Assembly (NCBI GenBank): GCA_937900285.1
Contig: CALCEM010000027.1
Span: 861-64,860 of the forward strand
Length of the DNA: 64,000 nt
Origin: an uncultured Fretibacterium sp.
GTDB taxonomy: Bacteria; Synergistota; Synergistia; Synergistales; Aminobacteriaceae
Direction: 5' to 3'
Both the position numbers and the translations under genes were made by a program. Under the pieces are notes generated by a model, which ran no database searches, had not been told where the DNA came from, and saw only the letters and a program-made list of their open reading frames with translations. How positions within the stretch are numbered: position 1 is the first letter of the stretch; every line of letters starts with the position of its first letter. Shown piece after piece: positions 171 to 61,005 of this stretch.

Positions 171-2059
171 TTTTTAAATAGCAGCGCAACAACTTTTATT
201 ATATCCGCTCCCAAATTTGATGGGCTTTTGCGTGCCTCTTCAGGACTCGGATCAGTATCTTCACGAACTCCTAAAACTGAACAGGTACGCTCCTTTAAAT
301 CATCATTTTCCTTTAATTCCGGCATAAAACTCATAACGTTTAATAAAAAATTTTTAAGCTGTATCTTCTCTTTATCCGAAAGCCACACGCCTATAAATTC
401 CCCGTAATATTCCGGCTCGTGTTCCGTTGGAAGATTTAAAGCCCGTTGCGCCTCAAGCCTCAAATTATCATCGTCACTCAATTTAAAATAATCGTTTAAA
501 CGCTGTCTCAATGGCTCAAATAATCTCTCCTCACGAGCAAACGTCAACGCGCAAATAAATTCCAGAACAAACGAAGCAATACGATACTCAGCAGATAATT
601 TTGCACCTTGCTCCAACGGAATAAATAAAATTTTTTCATCCCATAAATATTCACGTCCAGAGATTCCCAAATCAGGATATATCTGCCAGCCTTCAACTTG
701 AGCAGAGTCCACCATAATTTTACGTTCGCGGCCTTTTATTTTTCGTTCGGAATTTAATTCAGTCTTAATCTGCAATAACTCTCCAAGCTCCCCAAATGTC
801 GAAATTAACGGGTCATCTTCTTTTTCATTTTTTGCGCGAATGTCATCAATAAATTTTTCAAAATCCGGACGATCTTCTGTTACTATCTCGTTCACAATTC
901 TTTCTTCGTAACTTTCCTCAAGTCCAGACAAAAATACGTGCCACGCATCTTTTAACGGCTGAAACGGCTCTAAATTATCAAAAAAATTTAATATCTCAAT
1001 CGTCGAAGATTTTTTATCAGGCTCAATCGTCGGATTGCTCGGAACATATGAAATTGTCATCGTATTTTTAGGCTTGCTCAAAATTATTCCGCCGGAACAT
1101 AACTCTTTATAAATCGGCGTAAATTTCTGTAATAATTCATCTGAATACGGAATTTTTTTCTCACCAGGTTCGTGCAGCTTTTCACTCGTCCTCATTAAAG
1201 TAAATGCTGTCGCTGAAGGTAATGGCAATTTTGAATTTGCGTAAGAACTCAACATTATACATAACATGCCTTCCGGAACAGTGTTCATTCTTTTACACAA
1301 CGCTAATAAATCATCGTCGGGCAACCAAATTTTTACGGCCAGCCATGTTATAAAACGTATTAAATTATCGCGCATGGCCTCCCATCGCATCAAATGCAAT
1401 AATTTAAATGCGTCCGCTATACATATCCCCAAATCTAATTTATCGACAATGGCACGCCGTTCTATTCCGCATAACCATATTAACGGGTAACAAACATGAT
1501 CAGGCACTCTGATTCTTCCGCCTGCTAACCATGTTAAATAAATTCCTCGCTGTAACGGGTCCATTTCTGCATATGAAGCGACTTCATTTTTTGGAATTTC
1601 ATCGCCCTCGCTGGGAAATGCTACGGGTAAAGTTATGTCTATGCATGATGGTTCAGGAGTTGAGCTTTCACCGTTCGACCAATATGTTACGGGAGCTTGA
1701 ACAACAAAATTATTTACTTGAATAAATCCTGTTCGTCCGCACCATCTTAATAAATTTGAAACTGCTTTTTTCTTTTCGGACTTATCACTATAACCGTAAG
1801 GCGATTCGTCTCCGGCAGGTGCAGCCGATGAATAAGTCGCTCCGGAAGCTTTGGCGGCATCAGTAACAGGTTTTGCAGTGAGCACAATTTTTTTATTTTC
1901 GTCATCATCATTATTATTTTTACCGTTATCATTTTGGGCATTGCCATTTAAATTTTGTTCGGCCGAATCACCAGAATTATTATTATTATTATTATTTTGC
2001 TGGCGTAAAAATATCCCCACTGCTACTGCAACAAATAAACCTATTACGAGATAAAGCAT
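167..2059 (-). CDS. Membrane-anchored TerB-N domain protein with an N/D-rich linker
   Basis: N-terminal TM helix (LYLVIGLFVAVAVGIFL) followed by an N7/D-rich linker. Block EPSCIDITLPVAF...YAEMDPLQRGIYLTWLAGGRIRVPDHVCYPLIWLCGIERRAIVD matches the TerB_N signature (EPSLID.LPV...Y..LsP.QRaaYL.WLa.GR....igYvFLYFYGLERR). The C-terminal half was not recognised. Confidence 0.55.
   Translation of the reverse strand: MLYLVIGLFVAVAVGIFLRQQNNNNNNNSGDSAEQNLNGNAQNDNGKNNNDDDENKKIVLTAKPVTDAAKASGATYSSAAPAGDESPYGYSDKSEKKKAVSNLLRWCGRTGFIQVNNFVVQAPVTYWSNGESSTPEPSCIDITLPVAFPSEGDEIPKNEVASYAEMDPLQRGIYLTWLAGGRIRVPDHVCYPLIWLCGIERRAIVDKLDLGICIADAFKLLHLMRWEAMRDNLIRFITWLAVKIWLPDDDLLALCKRMNTVPEGMLCIMLSSYANSKLPLPSATAFTLMRTSEKLHEPGEKKIPYSDELLQKFTPIYKELCSGGIILSKPKNTMTISYVPSNPTIEPDKKSSTIEILNFFDNLEPFQPLKDAWHVFLSGLEESYEERIVNEIVTEDRPDFEKFIDDIRAKNEKEDDPLISTFGELGELLQIKTELNSERKIKGRERKIMVDSAQVEGWQIYPDLGISGREYLWDEKILFIPLEQGAKLSAEYRIASFVLEFICALTFAREERLFEPLRQRLNDYFKLSDDDNLRLEAQRALNLPTEHEPEYYGEFIGVWLSDKEKIQLKNFLLNVMSFMPELKENDDLKERTCSVLGVREDTDPSPEEARKSPSNLGADIIKVVALLFKN
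1976..1996 (-). repeat. (AAT)7 trinucleotide microsatellite encoding Asn7
   Basis: Plus strand reads att x7. It encodes QQNNNNNNNSG in the TerB-N protein. Confidence 0.9.
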
Positions 2060-2091
2060 TTAAAAATTTTTCTCCAGTCCTAATTTAAATT

Positions 2092-2973
2092 TTATAAAAT
2101 CTCAACAGTATATTTTTTTAGCATCTTAACAGGATTATATGAAATTTTTGCCTCGCGCAATCCTGCTTCTCCTAAATCTTCTTCACGATTTGCATATTTA
2201 TATTTCGCGCAGGAATTTCTCAGAAATAAATTATTTATCGCCTGATAACTCCCAGCATATTCCGAAAAAGCTTTTTCAAATTTTATATTTATATTTTCGT
2301 CATCTAATTCTTCGGCTATAGTGTAAGCAATAATTTTATTTTCAATTTTTATTATTCCCCCTGAAAATTTAAACTCGTTCCATTTTTCGAGAGCTGTTTT
2401 TATTGCGTTATCCTCATCCAAAAGTGAAGCAACTTCATCAGAATTTAAATTTAAATCTCTATGCTCGCGCCACACCTCCTGAAAATTAATCAGCTCATCA
2501 AAATATTCAGGCGTTAAATTATAATAATCCCATTCGTAACCATCCAAAAATGTACGCACTCTGTTACGTTTATGAGCGAATTTTTTACCCTTTAAATTTA
2601 TCAGCTCATCAACTAAATAAATATATTCGTCCTGATCGGGTTCAGAAATTAATTTAAATTTGTCGTTATTCTGAAGTTTTTCCGCGTAAAATTCCGGCAT
2701 ATCGTAAATAAAATTTATATTTTCAGATTTGAAATATTTCGGATTAAAAATTTTTTCGCAATTTCCAACAGGCCCGCACATTCCCGAATATTCATCGCTA
2801 AATCTCAACCAGCATAAATTATTAATTTCGTCATAAGCTATTTTTACAGGGTATGCTTTTTGCCACAACCATAAAGCAGAAAAACTATATTCAGCGTAAT
2901 GCACAGGTGAAGAATTATAAAATTTATCGTATTTGTTTTTGTCGTCCCAACTTAAATTTTTAAATTCCAACAT
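2092..2973 (-). CDS. DUF2156 (lysyl-PG synthase C-terminal-like, GNAT-fold) protein
   Basis: 293 aa. The N-terminal pattern LEFKNLSWDDKNKYDKFY...AEYSFSALWLWQKAY...IAYDEINNLCWLRF is typical of stand-alone DUF2156 proteins. Confidence 0.55.
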   Translation of the reverse strand: MLEFKNLSWDDKNKYDKFYNSSPVHYAEYSFSALWLWQKAYPVKIAYDEINNLCWLRFSDEYSGMCGPVGNCEKIFNPKYFKSENINFIYDMPEFYAEKLQNNDKFKLISEPDQDEYIYLVDELINLKGKKFAHKRNRVRTFLDGYEWDYYNLTPEYFDELINFQEVWREHRDLNLNSDEVASLLDEDNAIKTALEKWNEFKFSGGIIKIENKIIAYTIAEELDDENINIKFEKAFSEYAGSYQAINNLFLRNSCAKYKYANREEDLGEAGLREAKISYNPVKMLKKYTVEIL

Positions 2974-11159: not shown

Positions 11160-11188
11160 AATTTAAAATTGGGGGTTGACAAAATAAA

Positions 11189-12250
11189 ATGACTGCGCTT
11201 AAATCATCACATCACATCACATCACCTATTAATGTCCCTGAAGTAAATCATGATCTTGATGAAATTCATGTAACTTTGGGAGTTTACGATCCTACCGGGA
11301 AATATTCGCAACATGCCGGGGTCGTGATGACTTCGATTTTTGAAAACACTCATAACCCGGTGACCGTTCATATTTTGCACGATGAAACTTTGACGGAAGA
11401 CAACAAAAATAAGTTTATACGAACTGCCGAAAAATATAATCAAAAAATAGATTTAATAGACGTTAGAGAACGTGTAAAGAAGCTTCCTAAGCATGTAATA
11501 AATTTTTTTAGAGAACAATATTCTTCGCTTGGGACGTTTTATAGGTTTTTTATATTTGATTTACTGAAATTTGACAAAATAATATATTTGGATTGCGATA
11601 TTGTTGTGAATCTTGATATAAAAGAATTATGGCAGATCGATATAAAAAATTATTGTTTAGCTGCAATATTAGATAAACCGCTTCAAAGTACTCCAAAATT
11701 TTCGCAATACGCAATAGGTTTCAAAATGTATAACATGGACATCGCATCATATTTTAATGCTGGGGTTATAGTATTTAACTTGTCTGAAATACGTAAACTC
11801 AATTTAAACATTATTGAAGAAGCTACAAAATATTTCAAGCGCTATTCTCATATATTATCATTCAGTGATCAAGATTTTTTAAACGCGTTTTTTCACGATT
11901 CGGTTAAGCTCATTGATGAAAAGTTTAATAAATTTAATAGATTTTTGCCGGTCACAGATGAAGAAGCTCAAAATATCATTATGCACACTACTCCATACGA
12001 GTTCAGAGGCTGGGCAATGCACGGAAAAATTTATCAAAAATATTATTGGCTGAATTATTTAAAATCTGCATGGGGTGAAAATAAATCTCCGGCCGAAATG
12101 GTAGAAATATTAACTGAAGCCGCAAATATTCCGCAAAAAATCCAGTATTCAAAATTCATGAGCATTTACACAAGAAGCATAAAACATATAAAAGGCATAT
12201 TCAAATTATTAACGGCAGAATTAAAATACAGAATTACTCATAAGAATTAA
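11189..12250 (+). CDS. Glycosyltransferase family 8 (LPS/LOS-type retaining glycosyltransferase) with a 5' ATCAC repeat tract
   Basis: IHVTLGVYDPTGKYSQHAGVVMTSI, the DxD motif YLDCDIVV, and NAGVIVFNL. The tract encodes SSHHITS after codon 5. Confidence 0.85.
   Translation: MTALKSSHHITSPINVPEVNHDLDEIHVTLGVYDPTGKYSQHAGVVMTSIFENTHNPVTVHILHDETLTEDNKNKFIRTAEKYNQKIDLIDVRERVKKLPKHVINFFREQYSSLGTFYRFFIFDLLKFDKIIYLDCDIVVNLDIKELWQIDIKNYCLAAILDKPLQSTPKFSQYAIGFKMYNMDIASYFNAGVIVFNLSEIRKLNLNIIEEATKYFKRYSHILSFSDQDFLNAFFHDSVKLIDEKFNKFNRFLPVTDEEAQNIIMHTTPYEFRGWAMHGKIYQKYYWLNYLKSAWGENKSPAEMVEILTEAANIPQKIQYSKFMSIYTRSIKHIKGIFKLLTAELKYRITHKN
11203..11225 (+). repeat. Pentanucleotide tract atc(ATCAC)4 inside the 5' end of the GT8 gene
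   Basis: Read directly: aaATCATCACATCACATCACATCACct. The unit length is not a multiple of 3. Confidence 0.95.
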
Positions 12251-12319: not shown

Positions 12320-15133
12320 ATGGATCAAAAAGATTATAAAGATACTTTAAATTTGCCCGTCACAAATTTTCCGATGCGCGCTAATTTGGCAAAACGCGAA
12401 CCGGGATTTTTGGAATTTTGGCACGATAATGATATTTATCATAAAGCCCTCGAAGCTCGTCATAATTCAAAAGAGCATTTTATTCTGCATGATGGTCCGC
12501 CCTATGCTAACGGAGATATTCATATCGGGACGGCGTTCAATAAAATTTTAAAAGATTTCATCCCGAAATTTAAAACAATGTCCGGGATTTATGCTCCGTA
12601 TGTTCCCGGCTGGGATACTCATGGCCTGCCTATCGAATTAAGATCGCTCAAAGATGGTGGCTTCTCAAAATTAGGAGCCGGAATCGATCCCGTTGAACTT
12701 CGGAAACGCTGCAAAGAAACTGCATTACACTATTTAAATATTCAGCGCGAAGAATTTAAACGGCTCGGAGTTTTAGGCGAATGGGATCACCCATATATTA
12801 CGCTTGATCCGAATTATGAATATTTAGAATTAAATGCATTTGCCGAAATGGTCGAGAAAAATTTAATTTATCGCGGATTAAAGCCCGTATACTGGTGCAC
12901 AGATTGTCAAACAGCTTTGGCCGCCGGTGAAATTGAATATTGGGACGAATCTTCACCATCGGTTTATGTTGCTTATCCGATTCCAGAAATTAAAAATAAA
13001 TTCCCGGAGTTTTCGGACAGAGAAATTTATATTGTGATCTGGACCACAACCCCCTGGACATTGCCTTCAAGTGCCGGCGTTGCGTTGCATCCAAATTATA
13101 ATTACGGATTTTATGAGCATGACAATAAAATTTATATATTCGCCGAAGGTTTAAAAAATTCCGTGAGCGAGAACACTGGAATTAATTTCGGTGATGCCTT
13201 GAAAATTGTAAAGGGTGCAGACCTCGAAAAATTAAAAGCCGTTCACCCGTTTTACGACGATAAAGAAATTTTAATTGTGTTGGCCGATTATGTAGAACTC
13301 GAAACTGGCACGGGTTGCGTACATACTTCACCAGGACACGGCGTTGAAGATTATGAAACGGGCGTGCGTTACGGCTTAAAAGTTTACAGCTCCGTAGATC
13401 ATTCCGGACATTTTGAAAAAAATATGCAGATTGTCGGAGGTATGTCGCTCGAAGAAGGCGGAAATAAAGCGATCGAATTAATTAAATCTCGTGGCAGATT
13501 GTTGGGACTTGGGAAAATTTTGCACAGTTATCCGCACTGCTGGAGATGCAAAAAGCCCGTAATATTCCGCGCAACTGATCAATGGTTTATAAATGTTTCG
13601 GAATTTAAGGAGCAAGCATTAAATTTAATCGACAACGAAATAAAATGGATTCCAGACTGGGGACGCGACAGAATTTTTAACATGGTAAGTTCTCGTTCTG
13701 ACTGGTGCATATCTCGTCAAAGAGTTTGGGGGATTCCAGTCCCTGCAATTCGCTGCAAAGATTGCGGAGCTTTCACGCTTACACCCGACAGAATAAAATT
13801 GCTCGCTGAAAAAGTAAAAACATCTGAGGACGGTACATCAATTTGGTGGCGCGAAGATTTAAAAAATTTATTCGGCGATCTTGCTAAATGTGATCACTGC
13901 GGCTCTGAAAATGTTGAAAAAGATTCTAATATTTTAGATGTCTGGTTTGATTCTGGAGTGTCACATATTTCAGTTTTAAATGAAAAATTTGGATTGTCAT
14001 GGCCGTGCGATATGTATTTAGAGGGCAGCGACCAGCATCGCGGGTGGTTTCAATCTTCGTTATTAACTGCTACAGCGATCAAGGGACATGCACCATATAA
14101 ACAAGTTTTAACGCACGGTTTTACGCTTGATGGAGAAGGCCGTAAAATGTCCAAATCAATTGGCAATACAGTAGCTCCCGGAGATGTAATAAAGGAATTT
14201 GGCGCGGATATTTTGAGGTTATGGGTTGCATCGAGTGATTACAGAAACGATGTAAGAATTTCGAAGACAATTTTAAAAACTTTGTCCGAAACTTATAGGC
14301 GTATTCGTAACACGTCCAGATTTTTGCTGGGGAATTTACATGATTTTAAGCCGGCCGAAAATAAAATTAATTACGAGAATTTATTACAAATTGATAAATG
14401 GATTCTCGACAGGTTGCAGCATATTATAAGCAAATCTCAAACGGCTTACGAAAATTATGAATTTCATATCCCTGTTAATTTAATTCATTCGTTCTGCGTA
14501 AATGAGTTGAGTGCGTTTCATTTGGATATAAGCAAAGATCGTTTATATGTTGAAGATAAAAATTCTTTAACCAGGCGTAGCGCACAGACTGTAATGTGGG
14601 AAATTTTAACGGCCATGACGAAAATTTTAGCGCCGATTTTGAGTTTTACGGCAGAAGAGATTTGGCAGGAAATGAAAAATATTGATCCGAATTTACAGGA
14701 GAGTATATTTTTATCAGATTTCCCGAAATGCGACGAATCAAAAATTAACGATGAATTAAATAATTTATTTGACGAAGCTCAAAAATTAAAAGGTGCTGTT
14801 AGCCGTTGTCTTGAAATTATGCGAGCCGATAAAATAATAGGGACATCACTTGAAGCAGCTGTACAAGTTAAAAAATCTGACGAGCTTAAAATTTTAATTG
14901 ATTCGTTCACGCCCGAAGAATTAGCGGACATAGTGATCGTTTCAAAATTTGAATGGGTCGGCGAAAATAATAATTTAAATCTCGCGAAAAATTTCCATGA
15001 TGATTTAACGGGAATTGATCTCGCTGCAGGTTTCACGGCTGGGACGAAATGCCCGCGCTGTTGGAAATATTCAGATAAGCCCAATAAAAATAATTTATGT
15101 CCGAGATGTGCGCATGTTCTGCACGAGGATTAA
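12320..15133 (+). CDS. ileS: Isoleucine--tRNA ligase
   Basis: 937 aa. HIGH-type motif PYANGDIHIGT, KMSKS, and C-terminal Zn-binding CPRCW...CPRC. Confidence 0.97.
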   Translation: MDQKDYKDTLNLPVTNFPMRANLAKREPGFLEFWHDNDIYHKALEARHNSKEHFILHDGPPYANGDIHIGTAFNKILKDFIPKFKTMSGIYAPYVPGWDTHGLPIELRSLKDGGFSKLGAGIDPVELRKRCKETALHYLNIQREEFKRLGVLGEWDHPYITLDPNYEYLELNAFAEMVEKNLIYRGLKPVYWCTDCQTALAAGEIEYWDESSPSVYVAYPIPEIKNKFPEFSDREIYIVIWTTTPWTLPSSAGVALHPNYNYGFYEHDNKIYIFAEGLKNSVSENTGINFGDALKIVKGADLEKLKAVHPFYDDKEILIVLADYVELETGTGCVHTSPGHGVEDYETGVRYGLKVYSSVDHSGHFEKNMQIVGGMSLEEGGNKAIELIKSRGRLLGLGKILHSYPHCWRCKKPVIFRATDQWFINVSEFKEQALNLIDNEIKWIPDWGRDRIFNMVSSRSDWCISRQRVWGIPVPAIRCKDCGAFTLTPDRIKLLAEKVKTSEDGTSIWWREDLKNLFGDLAKCDHCGSENVEKDSNILDVWFDSGVSHISVLNEKFGLSWPCDMYLEGSDQHRGWFQSSLLTATAIKGHAPYKQVLTHGFTLDGEGRKMSKSIGNTVAPGDVIKEFGADILRLWVASSDYRNDVRISKTILKTLSETYRRIRNTSRFLLGNLHDFKPAENKINYENLLQIDKWILDRLQHIISKSQTAYENYEFHIPVNLIHSFCVNELSAFHLDISKDRLYVEDKNSLTRRSAQTVMWEILTAMTKILAPILSFTAEEIWQEMKNIDPNLQESIFLSDFPKCDESKINDELNNLFDEAQKLKGAVSRCLEIMRADKIIGTSLEAAVQVKKSDELKILIDSFTPEELADIVIVSKFEWVGENNNLNLAKNFHDDLTGIDLAAGFTAGTKCPRCWKYSDKPNKNNLCPRCAHVLHED

Positions 15134-15154
15134 TTAATAATTAAATTTTAAATT

Positions 15155-15185
15155 AGCTTCCTGAAAATATCGGGGAGCTTTTTTT
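15155..15185 (+). terminator. Rho-independent terminator after ileS
   Basis: Stem AGCTTCC / GGGGAGCT (7 bp, one G-U pair), a 10-11 nt loop, then a U7 run. Confidence 0.6.
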
Positions 15186-15275
15186 ATTAATAATAATGAT
15201 TTGCAATAAAAATTTACTGGTGATATGCTCTCACGGGAATTTTATTAAATATTAAATTTAGAAGGCAGGAATTTC

Positions 15276-17180
15276 ATGTTTAAAATTTCAAATGGTGAAA
15301 AAACTTGCGAATTTGAAAGCGGAGTAAAAATTTATGATGTTCTTAAATCTTTGGGACTCGATAATAAAAAATTAATCGCAGGAAAATTAAACGGTAAATT
15401 ATTAGATTTGTCGCGCGAAATATCCGAAGGCGGAGAAATTGAAGCAGTTAATACAGATTCTCCCGAAGGTTTAGAAATTTTAAGACATTCGACAGCGCAT
15501 TTAATGGCCGAAGCTATAGAAAAATTATATCCCGGTACAAAATTCGGAATAGGTCCGGCAATTAAGGACGGATTTTATTATGATCTCGATATAGCTGGAG
15601 ATATTACTATTACTGAACAGGATTTCTCAGCGATTGAAGCCGAAATGAGAAAATTATCAGGTGCAGCCGAAAAAATTACGCGCGAAGATTTGCCAAAAGA
15701 CGAAGCGTTAAAATTTTTTGAGTCACGCAACGACAATTATAAAACTGAATTAATTAACGAGATCGATGCGCCTACAGTTTCGATTTATAAACAAGGAAAT
15801 TACGCAGATTTATGCAGAGGTCCTCATGTTCCAGATACATCGAAAGTAAGAAATTTTAAATTATTATCAGTGGCGGGAGCTTATTGGCGCGGCAGCGAAA
15901 AAAATAAAATGCTTACAAGAATTTACGGTACAGCCTTCGCAAATCCTGACGAATTAAAAGAATATTTAAAACGAATGGAAGAAGCTAAATTACGCGACCA
16001 TAGAAAACTGGGCAAAGATTTGGATTTGTTCAGCCTGCACGAAGAGGGGCCGGGCTTTCCGTTCTTTCATCCTAAAGGCGTGACGATAATGAACACTTTA
16101 ATAGATTTTTGGAGGCGCGAACATCTTAAGCGCGGTTATCTTGAAATTAAAACGCCTCAAATTTTGGATCGTGATTTATGGATCAGGTCTGGTCATTGGG
16201 ATCATTATCGCGAAAATATGTATTTAACGGAAATTGATGGGAAACCTTATGCGATAAAACCGATGAATTGTCCGGGCAGCATTCTGGTTTATAAAACGCA
16301 GTTAAGAAGTTACAGAGATTTGCCGTTGAGGCTTGCGGAGCTTGGAATTGTTCACCGTCATGAACGCAGCGGAGTTTTACACGGATTAATGCGCGTTAGA
16401 TGTTTTACGCAGGACGATGCACACACGTATATTGAACACGCAAAAATAAAAGAAGAAGTAACGGAAATTATGAACCTCGATAAATATGTTTATAATGACG
16501 TATTTGGTTTTAAATATTCCGTTGAGCTTTCGACTCGTCCAGAAGATTCAATGGGAACTGACGAACAATGGGAGACGGCAGAAAATGCTTTACGCGAAGC
16601 ACTTGAGAGCACAAATACCCCATATACTATTAATCCTGGCGACGGAGCATTTTACGGTCCTAAAATTGATTTTCATCTCGAAGATTGTCTCGGCAGGACT
16701 TGGCAATGCGGTACGATTCAATTAGATTTTCAATTACCCGGACGTTTTGAAGTTACGTATATAGGTGAAGACGGTGCTGAACATACGCCGGTATTGCTTC
16801 ATAGGGTAGTGTTCGGGAGCGTTGAAAGATTTTTGGGGATTTTAATTGAACATTATGCCGGAGCTTTTCCGTTTTGGCTTGCACCTGTTCAGATTGAATT
16901 AATTACGGTTTCGGAAAATCATTTGAAGTACGCTGAAGATTTGAAAAATAAATTAATTGATTCCGGTTTCAGAGTTGATATTGATAAGCGTAACGAAAAA
17001 TTAGGGCGTAAAATTCGAGATGCTCAATTACAAAAAGTCCCGTATATGTTGATAATCGGCGATAAGGAATGCGAAAATAATTTAATGTCTGTTCGTGAAC
17101 GTTCAAAAGGCGATCTTGGCAGTATGAATTTTGAAGAGTTTAAAAATTTGTTGAATCAGGAGTTTAACCCAATTCACTAA
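15276..17180 (+). CDS. thrS: Threonine--tRNA ligase
   Basis: 634 aa. TGS domain N-terminus, editing-domain motif HSTAHLMA, class II core with FTQDDAH, and a C-terminal anticodon-binding domain. Confidence 0.97.
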   Translation: MFKISNGEKTCEFESGVKIYDVLKSLGLDNKKLIAGKLNGKLLDLSREISEGGEIEAVNTDSPEGLEILRHSTAHLMAEAIEKLYPGTKFGIGPAIKDGFYYDLDIAGDITITEQDFSAIEAEMRKLSGAAEKITREDLPKDEALKFFESRNDNYKTELINEIDAPTVSIYKQGNYADLCRGPHVPDTSKVRNFKLLSVAGAYWRGSEKNKMLTRIYGTAFANPDELKEYLKRMEEAKLRDHRKLGKDLDLFSLHEEGPGFPFFHPKGVTIMNTLIDFWRREHLKRGYLEIKTPQILDRDLWIRSGHWDHYRENMYLTEIDGKPYAIKPMNCPGSILVYKTQLRSYRDLPLRLAELGIVHRHERSGVLHGLMRVRCFTQDDAHTYIEHAKIKEEVTEIMNLDKYVYNDVFGFKYSVELSTRPEDSMGTDEQWETAENALREALESTNTPYTINPGDGAFYGPKIDFHLEDCLGRTWQCGTIQLDFQLPGRFEVTYIGEDGAEHTPVLLHRVVFGSVERFLGILIEHYAGAFPFWLAPVQIELITVSENHLKYAEDLKNKLIDSGFRVDIDKRNEKLGRKIRDAQLQKVPYMLIIGDKECENNLMSVRERSKGDLGSMNFEEFKNLLNQEFNPIH

Positions 17181-21520: not shown

Positions 21521-23128
21521 TTATCTGTATCCGAGTTCTTCGCCTTGAGGATAGGTCAGCGCAAAATCTACAATTATCTCGGAACTTTTACCAGCCGGAA
21601 TTTCTAACTCCCAAGTTAATATTTTTTGGGCGCTTAATTCTTTTTGTGCTGGAGTAATTTTTTTAATTTCAAGTTTAATTTTTTCATCAGTCGGAATCGG
21701 TAAACGATCTTTAACAATTATTTTTCTGGTTGAATCCGTGCCGTTGTTGATTATTAATTTATATCCTGAAGTTAAAACTCCGCTGAACCATGATGTACCA
21801 GTTTTTTCGATTATAGGTTCTTTCTTAATTGTAATTTGATCTATATAGCCAAATTCTATTTTATGTTGGGCCTGTTTGGATTCAGTTAAATTAATTTTTC
21901 CAGCTGGACGGCCGTCAATAAATAATTCTGTCATGGCCGGTATTAAACGTTTTGAAGCCGGATCGAGTTCTGCAATTATCCAAGCATCCCGCCTCAATTC
22001 CGGGATTAATAAAATTTTTGCTTCGCTCTTAAAATTGCTGGCTTCATAGAGTTCTATTTCAAGATTTAATTTATTTCCGTCACCCGTAATATTTGCTTCC
22101 GCCTCAATAACCCAGTCCGATAAAGATTGCGAAACGGTTGGAGCTGATCTCACGGATGACTCTTCAACAGCATACTCATCAATTCCTGAATCCATCGCGC
22201 TTTTTCTGTAAAGTGCCCTTGAGGAATTTCTCTCACTTCTTTCAACCTCTTCCCTGCGCCTTGAAGCTGCTGGCGGTACATTTTTGGGTTTAATGAAAAC
22301 TCTCACGGGTCTCAAATCCGGCGTTGTAATTTTTCCGTACGGGTCTTTTGTGTGTAAAATTATTTCTCCCTCATAATTTAAACCAGTTTTCTGAAAAATT
22401 TCCGTATACATATGATTTTCAATTTCGCCAGTTTCAGAATTTAAATACATAAAATATTTTGGAGTCCAGCCGGCAAAAGTCGTAAACGTCTCAAGCGTTA
22501 CAGTATCTTCAGCTTTACCGGTCACAACGAGTGAATATTTTGCGCGCCCCGGTTTTTTTGGATTATATTCGGATTCGAGAGCCTCTAAAATTTCGCGCTC
22601 GTTCTTTAAATCTTCCTGCAGGTCTCTTAAATCGCTTTCAGTTCTGTAACGTAATTTTTGAGCAGCCGGAATATATTCGAGCATATTTTTAGGGTCAGCC
22701 TTTTCCGGGTCATAATCGTTTAAAATTTTTATGGTCTGTTCGAGTGAATTTTTACGCGCTTCTAAATCTTCAACGGTTTTTATTTGGTCATCGAGTTTGC
22801 TTTTTAACTCTTCCAAAAATTCCGGAGTCCATTCCGCGCGGGTTTTTGTAAAAATTTGTACTCCTGCACCGTTGCCACTCGTTATAATAGTTTTGTCTTC
22901 GAGAAATGCGCCAGGTAATTCGGTATTAATTTCTCCGTCGGAATTTGGATAAACTTCAAATGTGAATTTTGCCCCGGACGGATAAAAATCAATTTTAGTG
23001 ATCTTAAACGGTTCATCAGGTTCGGTAATATCTTCAACAGTTATACTCTGAATAACCGCACCATATGAAGCAATTGAAAAAATAAAAATTGAAGTTAATA
23101 TAAAAATTGCAGTTAGGAAATTTCGCAT
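21521..23128 (-). CDS. Exported DUF4139/DUF4140-like (TIGR02231-type) protein with a coiled coil
   Basis: 535 aa. Signal peptide MRNFLTAIFILTSIFIFSIASYGA, a central coiled coil, and a beta-rich C-terminus. The family call comes from overall architecture only. Confidence 0.45.
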   Translation of the reverse strand: MRNFLTAIFILTSIFIFSIASYGAVIQSITVEDITEPDEPFKITKIDFYPSGAKFTFEVYPNSDGEINTELPGAFLEDKTIITSGNGAGVQIFTKTRAEWTPEFLEELKSKLDDQIKTVEDLEARKNSLEQTIKILNDYDPEKADPKNMLEYIPAAQKLRYRTESDLRDLQEDLKNEREILEALESEYNPKKPGRAKYSLVVTGKAEDTVTLETFTTFAGWTPKYFMYLNSETGEIENHMYTEIFQKTGLNYEGEIILHTKDPYGKITTPDLRPVRVFIKPKNVPPAASRRREEVERSERNSSRALYRKSAMDSGIDEYAVEESSVRSAPTVSQSLSDWVIEAEANITGDGNKLNLEIELYEASNFKSEAKILLIPELRRDAWIIAELDPASKRLIPAMTELFIDGRPAGKINLTESKQAQHKIEFGYIDQITIKKEPIIEKTGTSWFSGVLTSGYKLIINNGTDSTRKIIVKDRLPIPTDEKIKLEIKKITPAQKELSAQKILTWELEIPAGKSSEIIVDFALTYPQGEELGYR

Positions 23129-41604: not shown

Positions 41605-44600
41605 TTATACTTTAAATTCTTCCGGCCTTTTGCCATAACGAATTTTTCTCGGCAAATTATCATCGTATAAAAAATATTTATTCATTTGGGCGATGTGCTT
41701 TATAAAATTAATTTTCATTTCATCGGTCATTTTATTTTCAAGAGCATTTTTTATAACGGCCTCCAAACTTTCAAAATTAAAAGCCTCGTAGCAACAGCCT
41801 TTACCCCTTAATGACGTATATCCGAGCATTATTAAAGGTTTTTCTCGAATTAATGCTATATAACCTGTTGAGCTTAAAATCGTTATAGTTAAATCCGCAT
41901 AATCAACCAGGTCATTAATATTACATGCTTTCACAATGTGAACGGATTTAGGCATCTCAGGAATTTCACAACCAAACATAAGAGGATGTATTTTATAAAT
42001 TATTTCCCAATTATTTTTTAATGCGAGTTCACCTAAAATTTTAGCTGCTTCATTACTTGATTTTATGAAAGGAGATTCAAAATTTTTCACAACATCATCA
42101 TATGGAAAAAGTCCGGCCTCGTAATCAAGTTCACCTGTATATAAAATTACGGGATGTTTAGGATTAAGATTCATTTTAAAATTATTTATCACATTATTTT
42201 CAGGTTGCTTATATCTGTTCAGCTTGCTTGATTGTAAAAATTTATAAACTTCCTGAGCATTTTTTATTTCATCCTGAGTAATTTCCAGCTTTAAAAATTC
42301 TTCGTAATTCTTTGCCGGGAAACTTTTACCCGTTTGGCCTCCAGCTGTAACAAAAAATGTGCCGGGAATTTGACCAGTTTCCATATAATTTACAGTCATG
42401 TTAAGTTCTTTTGCGACACAATTGACAATTCTGTGTAACCCTTGATATTCATTCCATGTAATAATTAACTTTGGTTTTAATATTTTAAATACTTGGGTTA
42501 AATATTCGTATGATTTAAGCACAAAATATTCTATAAAACTCCTTTTGACATTGGGTAAATACTTTATTAACATCTCAACATCACCATTTAAAAGAGGGCT
42601 AGAATAAATTAATTTTTTCTGATCATCAGTTACTTTTATATCAAGCTCAGGAATATATTTATTACGTTCAAAAAATTCCGGCAAAATATGTACCGGCATA
42701 TGAACATTTTTAATAACCTGCTCAAATGACGTATATTCAGACATAAATAACCAGTCATAATTTATATTAACTCCGGCAAGATCATTCAAAAATGCGCATA
42801 TTCCTCTACCATATCCGGCAACCCCACCGATAAAAATAATTTTGTCCCGTTTAAAGTATCTTGCATAATTTTTAATTTCATCAATAGAATTTTTTATGTC
42901 AATTTCAGTACTTTTTACAAATTCTTCGGCTGATACTTTAAATTTATTGGGATTCAATTTATTAAGCCTTCTGATTATCCCTTTTACGTGGAGTTTTTTC
43001 GCGATGTCTTTTAAATAAAATTTTTCCGCAACGCCTTTTAATAATTTTTTGATTTTGCTCCCTTCACGCTCATCAGAATAAGGCACGAAATAATTATAAA
43101 TTTTCTTAGCTCCGAGAAATTTCAGGAATTTTTTAAGCATAAATTTATTACGGTTTTTAAATTTGCCGTCAAACCACGCCTCAAAATAATTTGCTGTGCT
43201 ACCTCCCATAAATTCGGCTTCGGAATGGCTTAAGGCTCTTAAAATTTTCGCATCGGTTTTTGTCGGATTAATTAAGATTTCTGCAACAATCCAAAATAAA
43301 TTATGCGGATCAAATCTCATAAATTTAATATTTTCTCCGAAACGTTCGGCCATGATCCTGCAAAATAAAATTATATTTTCCTGAATTATATTTACGTTGT
43401 CGTGCGGAATATTTATTTTCCCGTCTTGTTTTATAAATTTTCCGTCGCGCTTAATAATTTCCGTTATGCCAGGTTCGGAACTGCTTAAAATTCTTTCCAT
43501 GAGAGCATGTAATAAACCAGCTTTACCAGTAACATTTTTTCCGCAGTTAATGCATGATTTTAAATTTACTTTTGGCAAATATTCAGAACAAAGCCAGGAC
43601 CATTTTAAAAGCTGATAGCCCGTAACTCTTAATCCGCTGGAAATTTCGGCCATAAAATTAGCTACAGCTCCGCGATAACCAATATCAAATATTGCGACAT
43701 GTTCATAATTTTTAATTTTGTCCCGGCAATATTCGCGAATAATTTTTATTTTCTCAGTTCCATTTTTGCGTAAATATTTTTCTAATTCGCTCGTCAGTCT
43801 GTAAATTCTGTGAACGTCCTGAATTTCTTCGTCCGGATTTAAATAACCGCTCTTGCCTAAAATTCTTAACACTTCTTCAAATTCTTTTTCGTCATCAATT
43901 AATAATCTGTATTTTATAAAATTTCTGACGGTCATTTTTTCGGGAATCGTATAACATAAATGCGTTAATGGGTGTTCATGTTCCGCGCAAATGGGATAAC
44001 GTACACTGCGATTTAAATAAATTGGTTCTGCTGAAATTTCAGGATCGTAAAAATTTTTAAGTAATTTTATAATTTCAAGCGGTAAATAACCATCCCGCCA
44101 GGCCAGAAATAATTTTTTTATCCCGTTATGTTCCATATCATCGAGAATCCATTTTGAAAAAGCCAACATAAACGGAGCAATTACAAAGCCTAAATTTTCA
44201 GGGGAATTATTAGCGATGCCGTCATATTTTATAAACGGGTCGTCAAATAATAAATTTGCCAAAGTTCCAATTAAAAAAACATTATCGTTTGAATTTTCCG
44301 CGATTTCCCGTAATTGATTATGCGAGTTAAAAACATCGATTGCCTTAGGAAATAAAAACGCGTTTAACCCTGCTTCACGGGCTTTTACAAAATCAGAATA
44401 ATAATTATCTCCAATATGTAAAATTTCATTGGGCTTAATATTTTCCCGTTCAAAATCCTTTATGATGCGTTTAAATAATTTGCCTGTAGATTTTGTTTCT
44501 TTGTATTCGGACGACAAATAAATTTTTTTGTAACCAGTGAAATTATTTTTATTCAGAACTTTTTCAATAAAATTAACTGGTAAATACATATCTGACGTAA

Positions 44601-45063
44601 TTATAATTATTTTGCCGGAATTTAGAGCACTTTCAAAAACTTCTTTTATGCTTTCTCTCGAATATAATAATTTTTCTTCCGTATCAAGCTCAAAATTTTT
44701 TATATCTTCTACCTGTTCGTGTGAAAATCCAAAACATTTTTCAAGCTGTAAATAAATTTCATTCAGCGTAATTTCATCATGATCATTTAACTTACAATTT
44801 CTGGCTTCCTGTTCTGCTTCAGTTCGCATTCTAGTAAATTGATGTTCAGCAAACTGACCTTGATTTAAATAAAATTTATTTCCGATTATCCTGAAAATAT
44901 CCGATGGCTTCGAGGCCGGGCGAAATAATAACGTGTCAAAAATATCAAAACTTATTACTTTAAATTTATTGGAACATACTTTATTTATTAAAGAACATAA
45001 TTTACGTGATGTGATGTGATGTGATGTGATGTGAATTATACAAATTTTCTGACATCTTGTCAA
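41605..45063 (-). CDS. Large fusion protein: N-terminal HAD-family hydrolase (COG5610-like) plus a C-terminal capsule polysaccharide synthesis (KpsC/KpsS-like, PF05159-type) domain. The 5' ATCAC tract means it may be phase-OFF as assembled.
   Basis: HAD motif I VISFDIFDTLLFRP and motif IV HIGDNYYSDFVKAREAG. C-terminal block KPKLIITWNEYQGLHRIVNCVAKELNMTVNYMETGQIPGTFFV resembles Capsule_synth. The long frame has only a TTG start 1 nt after AAGGAG. Both upstream ATGs are in another frame (see findings). Confidence 0.6.
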   Translation of the reverse strand: MTRCQKICIIHITSHHITSRKLCSLINKVCSNKFKVISFDIFDTLLFRPASKPSDIFRIIGNKFYLNQGQFAEHQFTRMRTEAEQEARNCKLNDHDEITLNEIYLQLEKCFGFSHEQVEDIKNFELDTEEKLLYSRESIKEVFESALNSGKIIIITSDMYLPVNFIEKVLNKNNFTGYKKIYLSSEYKETKSTGKLFKRIIKDFERENIKPNEILHIGDNYYSDFVKAREAGLNAFLFPKAIDVFNSHNQLREIAENSNDNVFLIGTLANLLFDDPFIKYDGIANNSPENLGFVIAPFMLAFSKWILDDMEHNGIKKLFLAWRDGYLPLEIIKLLKNFYDPEISAEPIYLNRSVRYPICAEHEHPLTHLCYTIPEKMTVRNFIKYRLLIDDEKEFEEVLRILGKSGYLNPDEEIQDVHRIYRLTSELEKYLRKNGTEKIKIIREYCRDKIKNYEHVAIFDIGYRGAVANFMAEISSGLRVTGYQLLKWSWLCSEYLPKVNLKSCINCGKNVTGKAGLLHALMERILSSSEPGITEIIKRDGKFIKQDGKINIPHDNVNIIQENIILFCRIMAERFGENIKFMRFDPHNLFWIVAEILINPTKTDAKILRALSHSEAEFMGGSTANYFEAWFDGKFKNRNKFMLKKFLKFLGAKKIYNYFVPYSDEREGSKIKKLLKGVAEKFYLKDIAKKLHVKGIIRRLNKLNPNKFKVSAEEFVKSTEIDIKNSIDEIKNYARYFKRDKIIFIGGVAGYGRGICAFLNDLAGVNINYDWLFMSEYTSFEQVIKNVHMPVHILPEFFERNKYIPELDIKVTDDQKKLIYSSPLLNGDVEMLIKYLPNVKRSFIEYFVLKSYEYLTQVFKILKPKLIITWNEYQGLHRIVNCVAKELNMTVNYMETGQIPGTFFVTAGGQTGKSFPAKNYEEFLKLEITQDEIKNAQEVYKFLQSSKLNRYKQPENNVINNFKMNLNPKHPVILYTGELDYEAGLFPYDDVVKNFESPFIKSSNEAAKILGELALKNNWEIIYKIHPLMFGCEIPEMPKSVHIVKACNINDLVDYADLTITILSSTGYIALIREKPLIMLGYTSLRGKGCCYEAFNFESLEAVIKNALENKMTDEMKINFIKHIAQMNKYFLYDDNLPRKIRYGKRPEEFKV
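45006..45034 (-). repeat. Pentanucleotide tract tcac(ATCAC)5 at the 5' end of the HAD/capsule gene
   Basis: Plus strand reads (gtgat)5gtga. It encodes HITSHHITS in the long frame. Confidence 0.95.
45035..45063 (-). promoter_or_regulatory. Perfect sigma70 consensus (TTGACA-17-TATAAT) abutting the ATCAC tract; function unresolved
   Basis: Minus strand has TTGACA at 45063-45058, a 17-nt spacer, and TATAAT at 45040-45035. The predicted +1 falls inside the repeat tract. Confidence 0.4.
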
Positions 45064-45144
45064 GCTCCTTCATTTTTTTTTATAACTTATTTTAACCGGG
45101 AAGCACGTGCTGGCCTCCCGTAAATTTTATTTTAATTTAAATTT

Positions 45145-50443: not shown

Positions 50444-51016
50444 TCAATCCTCATTTTTTGTTTTTATGGTTAATCTTTTATTTTTATCTATTTTTTTAGA
50501 TAGCTTAACTTTATCAAACACTTTTGCTTTTTTGGACATAATGCTTACAGCTTCTTTCATTACCGAATCATTATGTGTTTCGTGGAACTTTTTTGATGAT
50601 TCGTCAACACTGTAACTGTAAATCAAAGGACCACTAACAGCACTAAGAGAACTAGACAGGTTCTCATAAAAACGGGCATGTGCCAAAGCATATTTTTCAC
50701 CGTCAGAAGTAAATTCATAGTAATACTCAGCATGGTTAATGATTGAAGCTTCTTCCCGTGATAAGCCGTAAGAAGATACAAGATAATCTATAAATTTCCT
50801 TCTAACGCTGGTGTGAGGATGATATATATCCACAGGAGCAATGACAGCAAATGGTAGATCATTTTCATCTATGCCGTAATCCAATAAACCAAACCTCTCT
50901 GACAACTGTTCGTACTTCTCTAAAATATCATACGTCCCGGTATAAAAATCTGCGTTGCAAAGAGAAGCGGACAACATGACAAAACACAAAACTAACCCAG
51001 ATAAAAATTTGTTCAT
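50444..51016 (-). CDS. Secreted hypothetical protein
   Basis: 190 aa. Signal peptide MNKFLSGLVLCFVMLSASLCNA and a lysine-rich tail. RBS GGAGAA upstream. No family recognised. Confidence 0.6.
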   Translation of the reverse strand: MNKFLSGLVLCFVMLSASLCNADFYTGTYDILEKYEQLSERFGLLDYGIDENDLPFAVIAPVDIYHPHTSVRRKFIDYLVSSYGLSREEASIINHAEYYYEFTSDGEKYALAHARFYENLSSSLSAVSGPLIYSYSVDESSKKFHETHNDSVMKEAVSIMSKKAKVFDKVKLSKKIDKNKRLTIKTKNED

Positions 51017-51074: not shown

Positions 51075-51090
51075 TTTTTTTTTTTTTTTT
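51075..51090. repeat. Homopolymer T16 (A16 on the minus strand) in the leader/promoter region of the islet operon
   Basis: Read directly. On the minus strand A16 is followed by taccatacgc and then TACAAT (51064-51059). Confidence 0.9.
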
Positions 51091-59785: not shown

Positions 59786-60211
59786 ATGGCTAAGAAAGTT
59801 GTGGGACAGGTAAAATTACAGCTCCCTGCAGGAAAAGCTACACCAGCACCCCCCGTAGGCCCTGCACTCGGACAGCACGGCGTTAATATTATGGAATTTT
59901 GCAAGCAGTTTAACGCAAAAACTTCGGATCAAGCCGGTTTAATAATCCCTGCGGTTATTACTGTTTATGCTGATAGAAGTTTTACGTTTGAATTGAAGAC
60001 TCCGCCGGCAGCAGTATTATTAAAAAAGGCCGTTGGAATTGAATCAGGTTCAGGCGTTCCGAATAAAACAAAAGTCGGGAAAATCGCCCGCGCTAAAGTT
60101 CGCGAAATTGCAGAATTAAAACGCAAAGATTTAAACGCTAACGACATAGAAGCCGCCATGAGAATGATTGAAGGTACTGCTCGTTCAATGGGGCTTGAAG
60201 TAGTAAATTAA
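59786..60211 (+). CDS. rplK: 50S ribosomal protein L11
   Basis: [35 protein letters not shown]. Confidence 0.97.
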
Positions 60212-60300
60212 TTTGTAATTTAATTTGTGGGAGAGTTTTTAATTTAATTTAATTAATTAATTAATTTATCTCGCGAATACCACTGGAGGAATTTTTAAAA

Positions 60301-61005
60301 ATGAAACATAGCAAACGTTACCGCGAAGCAGCCGAAAAAGTTGAAGCCGGAAAATTATACGGACTCCGCGAAGCAGTAGAATTATTTAAACAGGTTGCCA
60401 CAGCAAAATTTAATGAGAGCATAGAAGTTCACGTAAAACTCGGAATCGATCCGAGACATGCAGACCAGCAAGTTAGAAGCACCGTTTCTCTTCCTCATGG
60501 GACTGGCGTAACAAAAAAAGTTTTGGTAATTACTCAAGGCGAAAAAATTAAAGAAGCTCAAGATGCCGGCGCTGATTTAGTTGGCGGTGAAGATATGGTT
60601 CAACAAATTCAAGGCGGGTTTATGGATTTTGATGCGGTCATCGCTACTCCTGACATGATGAAATCTGTGGGCCGTCTCGGTAAAGTTTTAGGACCGCGCG
60701 GTTTAATGCCTAGTGCCAAAGCTGGTACAGTTACGTTTGAACTTGAGAGCGCAGTAAAAGAAATTAAAGCCGGTCGAGTCGAGTTCAGAGCCAATAAAGC
60801 AGGAATCACTCATAATTCAGCAGGAAAAAGGGATTTTACAGCCGATCAACTTTATGAAAATGTAAAAGCTTTATTACAGGCTATTTATAAAGTGCGTCCG
60901 GCTTCGGTTAAAGGCACTTACGTCAAGAGCATAGCAATTGCTCCAACAATGGGGCCGGGAATCGCAATCGATCCAAGCCAAGTACAAAAGGAACTCGCGC
61001 TATAA
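60301..61005 (+). CDS. rplA: 50S ribosomal protein L1
   Basis: [11 protein letters not shown]...[33 protein letters not shown]...LGPRGLMP. Confidence 0.97.

Follow-up and report, generated by a model that had tools for sequence, protein, structure and literature searches.

The stretch of DNA analysed here, hereafter the window, comprises 64,000 nucleotides (nt) of contig CALCEM010000027.1 (positions 861 to 64,860), assigned to an uncultured Fretibacterium sp. of the Synergistota (assembly GCA_937900285.1), and carries on its minus strand a large gene for a HAD/capsule-type glycan enzyme with a perfect ATCAC pentanucleotide tract at its 5' end (Table 1). The window is matched by a 46-kb ENA contig from a bioreactor metagenome (ERR1278105, PRJEB12797) and by a 67-kb NCBI contig of a metagenome-assembled genome (MAG), and the tract sequence is the same in both. 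From 45073 to 45002 the minus strand reads ATGAAGGAGCTTGACAAGATGTCAGAAAATTTGTATAATtcac(ATCAC)5GTAA; rereading the letters and running Tandem Repeats Finder returned the tract exactly as a preliminary description of this DNA had given it, in sequence and in coordinates. The string ATCACATCAC occurs seven times in the window against 0.04 expected from dinucleotide shuffles, and all seven occurrences fall inside two tracts: the one at the HAD/capsule gene, which the preliminary description had recorded, and a second, in-frame one on the plus strand, 34 kb away, which it had overlooked.

The long open reading frame (ORF; 41605-45063, minus strand) comprises 1,152 codons when counted from TTG 45063, contains the motif VISFDIFDTLL and, apart from its start region, stays open throughout, with no other stop, frameshift or lesion. 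Frames were read after the locus had been rebuilt in silico with one to ten ATCAC units (n). At the assembled n=5, ATG 45055 opens a frame of only 17 amino acids (aa), MSENLYNSHHITSHHIT, which ends at TAA 45004-45002, and ATG 45073 gives 23 aa, while TTG 45063 shares the long frame at n=2, 5 and 8. At n=3, 6 and 9 both ATGs yield products of 1,146-1,162 aa. The frame arithmetic proposed earlier is borne out by this series: the ATG lying 9 nt behind AAGGAG runs into the TAA, the 1,152-codon frame is reachable at n=5 only through the TTG, and the gain of one unit or the loss of two (n=6 or 3) restores full length from the ATG. The TTG is at the same time the first three bases of the -35 hexamer of a perfect sigma-70 consensus promoter, here termed P2; the ribosome-binding motif and TTG had been placed correctly before, and their membership in a conserved cassette built around this 12/12 consensus had been missed.

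Table 1. Coordinates of the features discussed; positions refer to the window unless a collected locus (L number) is named
Feature	Position	Strand	Remarks
Body of intact 1,150-aa multi-domain glycan enzyme	41605-45005	minus	HAD phosphatase (CrpP-like), CriT-like region, C-terminal KpsC-like Capsule_synth domain
TAA	45002-45004	minus	Closes the 17-codon OFF-phase ORF, 1 nt past the tract
tcac(ATCAC)5 tract, perfect	45006-45034	minus	29 nt; 5.8 perfect copies (Tandem Repeats Finder); candidate hypermutable element
TTGACA-17 nt-TATAAT (P2)	45035-45063	minus	12/12 sigma-70 consensus; -10 box ends 1 nt before the tract
ATG in promoter spacer	45053-45055	minus	Putative start codon (MSENL...); shares the frame of the long ORF at n=3, 6 or 9 units only
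AAGGAG, Shine-Dalgarno-like	45065-45070	minus	9 nt upstream of ATG 45055; local version of the conserved GAAAGGA/AAGGAG cassette motif
Second ATG, further upstream	45071-45073	minus	Frame common with ATG 45055
G+C-rich hairpin (cgggaggccagcacgtgcttcccgg)	45096-45120	minus	Behind the upstream 233-aa ORF; no T-run
Degenerate cassette copy	11171-11204	plus	GGGGG, TTGACA (11176-11181), 17-nt spacer with ATG 11189, TTAAAT (11199-11204)
GT8 glycosyltransferase ORF	11189-12250	plus	353 aa; Pfam Glyco_transf_8; ON phase
Second ATCAC tract	11205-11225	plus	4.2 copies; in frame in the 5' end of the GT8 ORF; starts 16 bases after ATG 11189
(GCTCACA)8	L003 5288-5382		Fused in frame to a sugar transferase
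(CGCTTAT)6 and (CGTTCGT)4	L215 about 500-580 and 1707-1770		Ahead of two paralogous 323-aa genes
(CGGTTAT)4.6	L204-L206; L204 about 20942-20874	minus	Ahead of a methyltransferase

The encoded enzyme, its N-terminus and the second tract

The best solved relative of the enzyme is Bcs3, the capsule polymerase of Haemophilus influenzae type b (PDB 8a0c/9h50, E=7e-17). The HAD phosphatase domain, with its FDIFDT motif and matches to the Pfam Hydrolase and NCBIfam HAD-IA families, aligns to Bcs3 383-591, and with phmmer residues 36-466 align to Bcs3 383-827. In Bcs3 the HAD-type phosphatase CrpP occupies residues 374-591 and the phosphoribosyl pyrophosphate-dependent ribose-5-phosphate transferase CriT residues 592-1036 (PMC10299916). 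The aligned span covers the CrpP phosphatase with its DxD motif and extends into a CriT-like region, ending at Bcs3 residue 827, about halfway through CriT. Unlike Bcs3, the window enzyme lacks the TagF-like CroT ribitol-phosphate transferase domain (there is no match to Bcs3 1-373) and ends instead in a part that weakly matches Capsule_synth/KpsC. The enzyme is likely to attach a phospho-sugar, perhaps ribofuranose, and to take off the phosphate, and another transferase is probably part of it.

Sixteen orthologues (31-42% identity) begin with M-S-(E/D/K)-(K/G)-L, followed about 12 residues later by IKVVSFDIFDTLL, and in 16/16 the start lies about 17 residues ahead of KVVSFDIFDTLL. In a MAFFT alignment the window protein is gap-free up to the tract, with the orthologous MSEKL opposite TSRKL, the first two codons of which are the last codons of the tract; this locates the ancestral N-terminus precisely at the edge of the tract. 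Beyond the tract, no in-frame ATG, GTG or TTG occurs before residue 79, that is, past the catalytic DxD motif, and translation must therefore begin upstream and read the tract as (HHITS)n. Both tract-bearing proteins of the window have closest relatives of at most 42% identity and form singletons among the 90% clusters, which leaves no strain comparison at these exact loci. Pattern scans of species-representative genomes for HAD/capsule and GT8 proteins found none, and a synthetic (HHITS)n protein query for in-frame tracts returned no matches.

The second tract lies within the first codons of a gene whose product scores 129.5 bits against Glyco_transf_8 (cut-off 24.3) and is closest to lipopolysaccharide alpha-galactosyltransferases. 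Rebuilding the series there places the tract in frame at n=0, 3 or 6, and no other in-frame canonical start lies ahead of the first strand of the GT8 domain. Both tract-bearing genes stand alone amid housekeeping genes: the GT8 gene has a DUF554 protein on one side and the isoleucyl-tRNA synthetase IleRS on the other, and the large gene has as neighbours a 233-aa membrane ORF and ClpB. The 233-aa ORF was considered as a sugar transferase and rejected, no real similarity having been found. When it was used as a handle for contigs ending at the tract, only the already known contig was found. IleRS has its closest named relatives, at 75-80% identity, in Synergistaceae MAGs; a ClpB scan, with 55-72% identity across many phyla, was uninformative for taxonomy. 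In relatives with 79-83% identical IleRS the synteny around that gene is not conserved and the region holds no tracts.

Elsewhere the window holds flagellar and type IV pilus/type II secretion system genes, together with two further repeats. A run of 16 T on the plus strand (A16 on the minus strand) at 51075-51090 lies about 60-75 nt upstream of ATG 51016 of the ORF 50444-51016 (minus strand) and just upstream of a TACAAT box, and could represent a homopolymer within a promoter spacer or -35 region. Between the ORFs 59786-60211 and 60301-61005, positions 60238-60268 are occupied by an imperfect (TTTAA/TTAA)n run.

A 5' cassette shared among Synergistales glycan genes

The sequence preceding the tract, AAGGAGC-TTGACA-N17-TATAAT, is the local version of a cassette of roughly 50 nt that is found in Synergistales MAGs ahead of surface-glycan genes. 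When species-representative genomes were scanned for (ATCAC)4, loci from many phyla came up, five of them from four Synergistales MAGs. These five loci and both window tracts share one order of elements: GAAAGGA/AAGGAG, TTGACA, a 17-18-nt spacer, a -10 box (TATAAT, TATGAT or TAAAAT among cassettes), 0-5 nt, and the repeat. A pattern scan for this architecture gave 26 stretches, 9/26 from Synergistales; a MAG labelled as Fretibacterium and assembled from the same bioreactor run is among the sources of these nine. When all collected loci were searched for a promoter directly before any repeat, only the Synergistales loci and the window had one. Within the window AAGGNNYTTGAYA occurs exactly once, and the tRNA promoters have no cassette motif upstream. 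A metagenome scan for the cassette brought back only the already known L215 contig, and Rfam had no match for nine cassette loci.

In total 15 cassettes were collected from nine Synergistales MAGs and the window, all of them preceding glycan-related genes or genes of unknown function in glycan loci; the L215 polysaccharide locus alone holds three within 4 kb. The identifiable genes behind them encode WbaP-like sugar transferases (Bac_transf), polysaccharide pyruvyl transferase, GT8, methyltransferases and the Bcs3-like enzyme, and a further operon codes for a nitroreductase-like protein followed by an acyltransferase-3. The repeat units include ATCAC, GCTCACA, CGCTTAT, CGTTCGT and CGGTTAT. All are 5 or 7 nt long and none is a multiple of 3; that the sequence varies while the length is always 5 or 7 nt favours a frame-shifting role. 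We also considered the repeat as an array binding RNA or DNA sequence-specifically (TRAP-like, CRP half-sites or a Rho site) and rejected this in view of the unrelated 7-nt units found in the same cassette. Where the cassette is fused to its gene, both phases occur: the window GT8 gene, L004, L226 and the L003 heptamer are ON, and the window HAD gene, L225 and L216 are OFF. As at the HAD gene, one frame of the related cassettes meets a stop right after the repeat.

Alignment of 11 cassettes shows TTGA-A and T---AT to be invariant and the spacers to be unrelated. A start codon in the spacer is open into the repeat in 11/11 ATCAC cassettes (ATG in 9, TTG in 2), against a chance expectation estimated at about 0.25 ATG per spacer. 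The Shine-Dalgarno-like motif lies 9-15 nt from the ATG across cassettes. In eight relatives' cassettes the Shine-Dalgarno-like motif is preceded, at a distance of 25-55 nt, by an extended -10 box (TGnTATAAT), which could supply transcripts that include the spacer start codon.

Unit number varies at two homologous cassette loci of relatives, known from reindeer, red deer and goat rumen samples (L004/L225/L226 and L051/L227). Three proteins from different assemblies make up the 90% cluster of the L004 pyruvyl transferase; their genes have identical flanks and 8, 9 and 10 units. At 8 units the gene is entered in frame from the first spacer ATG (MNVYDFTSHH...), and at 10 from a second ATG within the TATGAT box (MISHHITS...); at 9 units every start is out of frame, and the gene caller resorted to an internal TTG. 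In a sugar-transferase leader L051 has 4 units and L227, a near-identical contig from another sample that breaks off 6 nt before the tract, has 7. The pyruvyl-transferase gene shows an additional frame difference away from the tract: it encodes a tandem two-domain 663-aa protein in L225, and a 560-aa protein plus a second ORF in L004 (about 2040-2300, minus strand) and L226.

A second arrangement is seen in the four orthologous sugar-transferase loci and the two L215 paralogues (L003, L051, L070 and L215), in which the repeat lies 76-109 nt upstream of a gene with its own Shine-Dalgarno motif and ATG. For the sugar-transferase leaders, folding predicts an intrinsic terminator together with a hairpin in which codons 4-6 sequester the Shine-Dalgarno motif; the repeat is left unpaired. 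In 6/6 leaders one post-repeat frame remains open over 25-33 codons and terminates between -18 and +1 relative to the main ATG, with an ATGA overlap in two, and the remaining frames stop early, often right behind the repeat. Three leaders (L070, by TTG@19 only, and two in L215) have the spacer start in their long frame; in the other three (L003, L051 and one in L215) it falls in a short frame. Shuffled leaders reproduce the long-frame pattern at 0.16-0.56 each, and four of the six leaders are orthologues; the pattern is thus only suggestive of a phase-dependent upstream ORF that might couple to the main gene or de-attenuate it.

Several other length differences were seen among the collected loci. 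In L204, a Synergistaceae relative with 79% identical IleRS, a run of 15 C (21676-21690) adjoins the start of a Methyltransf_21 gene; at its position the L205 and L206 assemblies have a run of N and a contig end, respectively, as if the homopolymer tract were heterogeneous. In L205, one of the three same-species assemblies, an ORF of unknown function that has 797 aa in L204 and L206 (13229-15622) is split into 509 and 288 aa (13229-14758 and 14755-15621). Four freshwater alphaproteobacterial MAGs (L209, L213, L219 and L221) carry 2, 6, 3 and 2 ATCAC units between the conserved flanks TTGACA...CAT[tract]ATCGCATTTATAGTGTGGGGG, a family of variable tracts unrelated to the Synergistales cassette.

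Proposed switching mechanism and competing explanations

We consider it probable that the ATCAC tract acts as a slipped-strand contingency element at the very beginning of the coding region of an intact Bcs3-like surface-polysaccharide gene, assembled here in the OFF phase. This agrees with the phase-OFF contingency locus of the preliminary description and draws its support chiefly from comparison, namely from the cassette family, the unit-number polymorphism at homologous loci and the N-termini of the orthologues. Translation would start at ATG 45055, directed by AAGGAG, and the ribosome would enter the enzyme through the (HHITS)n stretch only at 3, 6 or 9 units. In the assembled, majority allele of 5 units the ATG frame would end at TAA 45004, and the enzyme would be absent or weakly made from TTG 45063; replication slippage adding one unit or removing two would switch it on. 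Across Synergistales the cassette would gate glycan genes in one of two modes. One is direct fusion, as in the HAD gene, the GT8 gene at 11189 and, in relatives, genes for a pyruvyl transferase, a sugar transferase and probably an acetyltransferase; in the other the cassette lies in a leader, some 100 nt before the start codon of the gene itself. Our confidence is held at this level because switching at the HAD-gene locus and the 5' end of its mRNA are inferred, as are the use of ATG 45055 and the phenotype.

Several observations weigh against this interpretation. P2 is a perfect consensus, conserved while the spacers diverge, and a transcript from P2 starts in the tract. Such a transcript lacks ATG 45055, and translation from this codon hence needs an upstream promoter or read-through. 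Instead of a clear upstream extended -10 box, the window copy has only a weak TATAAA. Read-through from upstream is possible, as the hairpin behind the 233-aa ORF has no T-run, and a terminator search found none. The spacing between the Shine-Dalgarno-like motif and the ATG is long in several cassettes. Finally, the two assemblies of the HAD-gene locus derive from one run, and both have 5 units.

The alternative that survives best, although we regard it as unlikely, takes TTGACA-17-TATAAT as a working promoter whose transcript begins (AUCAC)n, with the repeat number tuning transcription, promoter escape, RNA stability or Rho loading instead of the frame. Conservation of the 12/12 promoter fits this well, since it is kept in 15/15 cassettes despite the diverging spacers, with the -10 box 0-5 nt from the repeat; at the HAD gene, the GT8 gene, the pyruvyl transferase and L216, however, a P2 transcript would offer no in-frame canonical start. 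At least nine cassettes have the repeat 70-110 nt upstream of a gene with its own Shine-Dalgarno motif and ATG, four orthologous sugar-transferase leaders hold the terminator and the sequestering hairpin, and the tract itself is G-free and predicted to be unpaired. On the other hand, start codons are enriched in the spacers, the constancy of unit length in the face of varying unit sequence speaks for frame over sequence, and Rfam recognises no known element. A leader-element mode may operate alongside the frame switch.

It is far less probable that the enzyme is made constitutively from TTG 45063, as gene callers annotate it, with the tract encoding an N-terminal peptide of variable length. 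The TTG frame is indeed open into the ORF at n=5, and several relatives' cassettes have the TTG of TTGACA in the frame of the start codon further downstream. However, AAGGAG ends 1 nt before the TTG, a gap too short for Shine-Dalgarno-directed initiation; a 5-nt unit cannot vary in number without changing the frame; and the homologous 9-unit locus has no in-frame start at all. Least credible is that the frame break marks a decaying pseudogene or an assembly miscount, as might be supposed from single-sample metagenome data in which the sole start with a plausible Shine-Dalgarno motif is out of frame, because the 29-nt tract is shorter than a read and identical in the ENA and NCBI MAG contigs, the 1,152 codons hold no other stop or frameshift, and the same architecture precedes intact, in-frame genes.

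Beyond the contingency tract at the HAD gene, a broader and more speculative proposal, which we put forward only tentatively, is that Synergistaceae possess a portable contingency cassette, consisting of an upstream extended -10 promoter, a Shine-Dalgarno motif, a sigma-70 consensus whose spacer holds the start codon, and a 5- or 7-nt repeat directly adjoining the -10 box, that places many unrelated glycan genes under stochastic control by frame fusion or by a phase-dependent upstream ORF. In the leader-type copies translation of the upstream ORF would have to pass through the terminator and the Shine-Dalgarno-sequestering hairpin and would end where the main gene starts. In this proposal the embedded promoter and the repeat would be linked in mechanism: a sigma-dependent pause might, for instance, couple and synchronise ribosome and polymerase, or recurrent melting of the DNA at the promoter might drive slippage. 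Service as a second promoter is a further possible role.

Relation to known phase-variable systems

Phase variation of surface sugars driven by simple repeats is textbook knowledge for a few host-adapted pathogens, and to our knowledge scarcely any cases have been documented among anaerobes that are free-living or come from guts and bioreactors. The mechanism itself is already known; what is new here is the repeat unit, the phylum and habitat, the shared cassette with its embedded promoter, and the apparent use from a leader. Literature searches on phase variation or simple repeats in Synergistetes/Synergistota, on pentanucleotide repeats in glycosyltransferases and on ATCAC brought up no account of such a system and no report of repeat-driven phase variation for Synergistota, consistent with the statement of the preliminary description that none was known for an organism of this kind. 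The data suggest that one reusable 5' cassette randomises the glycan coat across a whole lineage, probably under selective pressure from phages or predators. They also bear on annotation and assembly: gene callers misannotate cassette genes by giving them TTG starts or by shortening or splitting their ORFs, assemblies are broken at the repeat tracts, and subpopulations that differ in function are concealed behind a single consensus MAG. With the cassette motif, such loci can be searched for across whole genomes.

A close parallel is provided by the lipooligosaccharide loci of Haemophilus influenzae (lic1A, lic2A, lgtC and lex2), which carry tetranucleotide repeats after their start codons. Both systems place a perfect non-triplet repeat at the beginning of the coding regions for surface-glycan enzymes, among them a GT8 enzyme comparable to LgtC, and both consist of single genes scattered among housekeeping genes. 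In both, a choice of ATGs in different frames allows more than a single ON phase, and the phases seen at the pyruvyl-transferase locus (L004/L226) follow the multi-ATG, three-phase pattern of the Haemophilus genes. The Synergistales loci differ in their 5- or 7-nt unit, in their phylum and bioreactor or rumen habitat, in sharing a cassette with an embedded consensus promoter, and in that some copies act from the leader. With the opa genes of Neisseria, in which CTCTT repeats lie in the region coding for the signal peptide, they have in common a pentanucleotide in the translated 5' region and a 5' region conserved across many loci; whereas the opa genes are paralogues of one adhesin family, the Synergistales genes encode unrelated enzymes and share only the 5' cassette.

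The AGAT repeat of Moraxella catarrhalis uspA2 and the 7-bp repeats of the H. influenzae hmw genes lie in the 5' untranslated or upstream region, between promoter and start codon, and alter expression rather than frame. The leader-type cassettes (L003, L051, L070 and L215) resemble these repeats. Unlike them, however, the Synergistales leaders contain a short upstream ORF that starts before the repeat, and one of its post-repeat frames reaches the main start codon. This suggests translational coupling or anti-termination at these loci rather than a graded effect on transcription.

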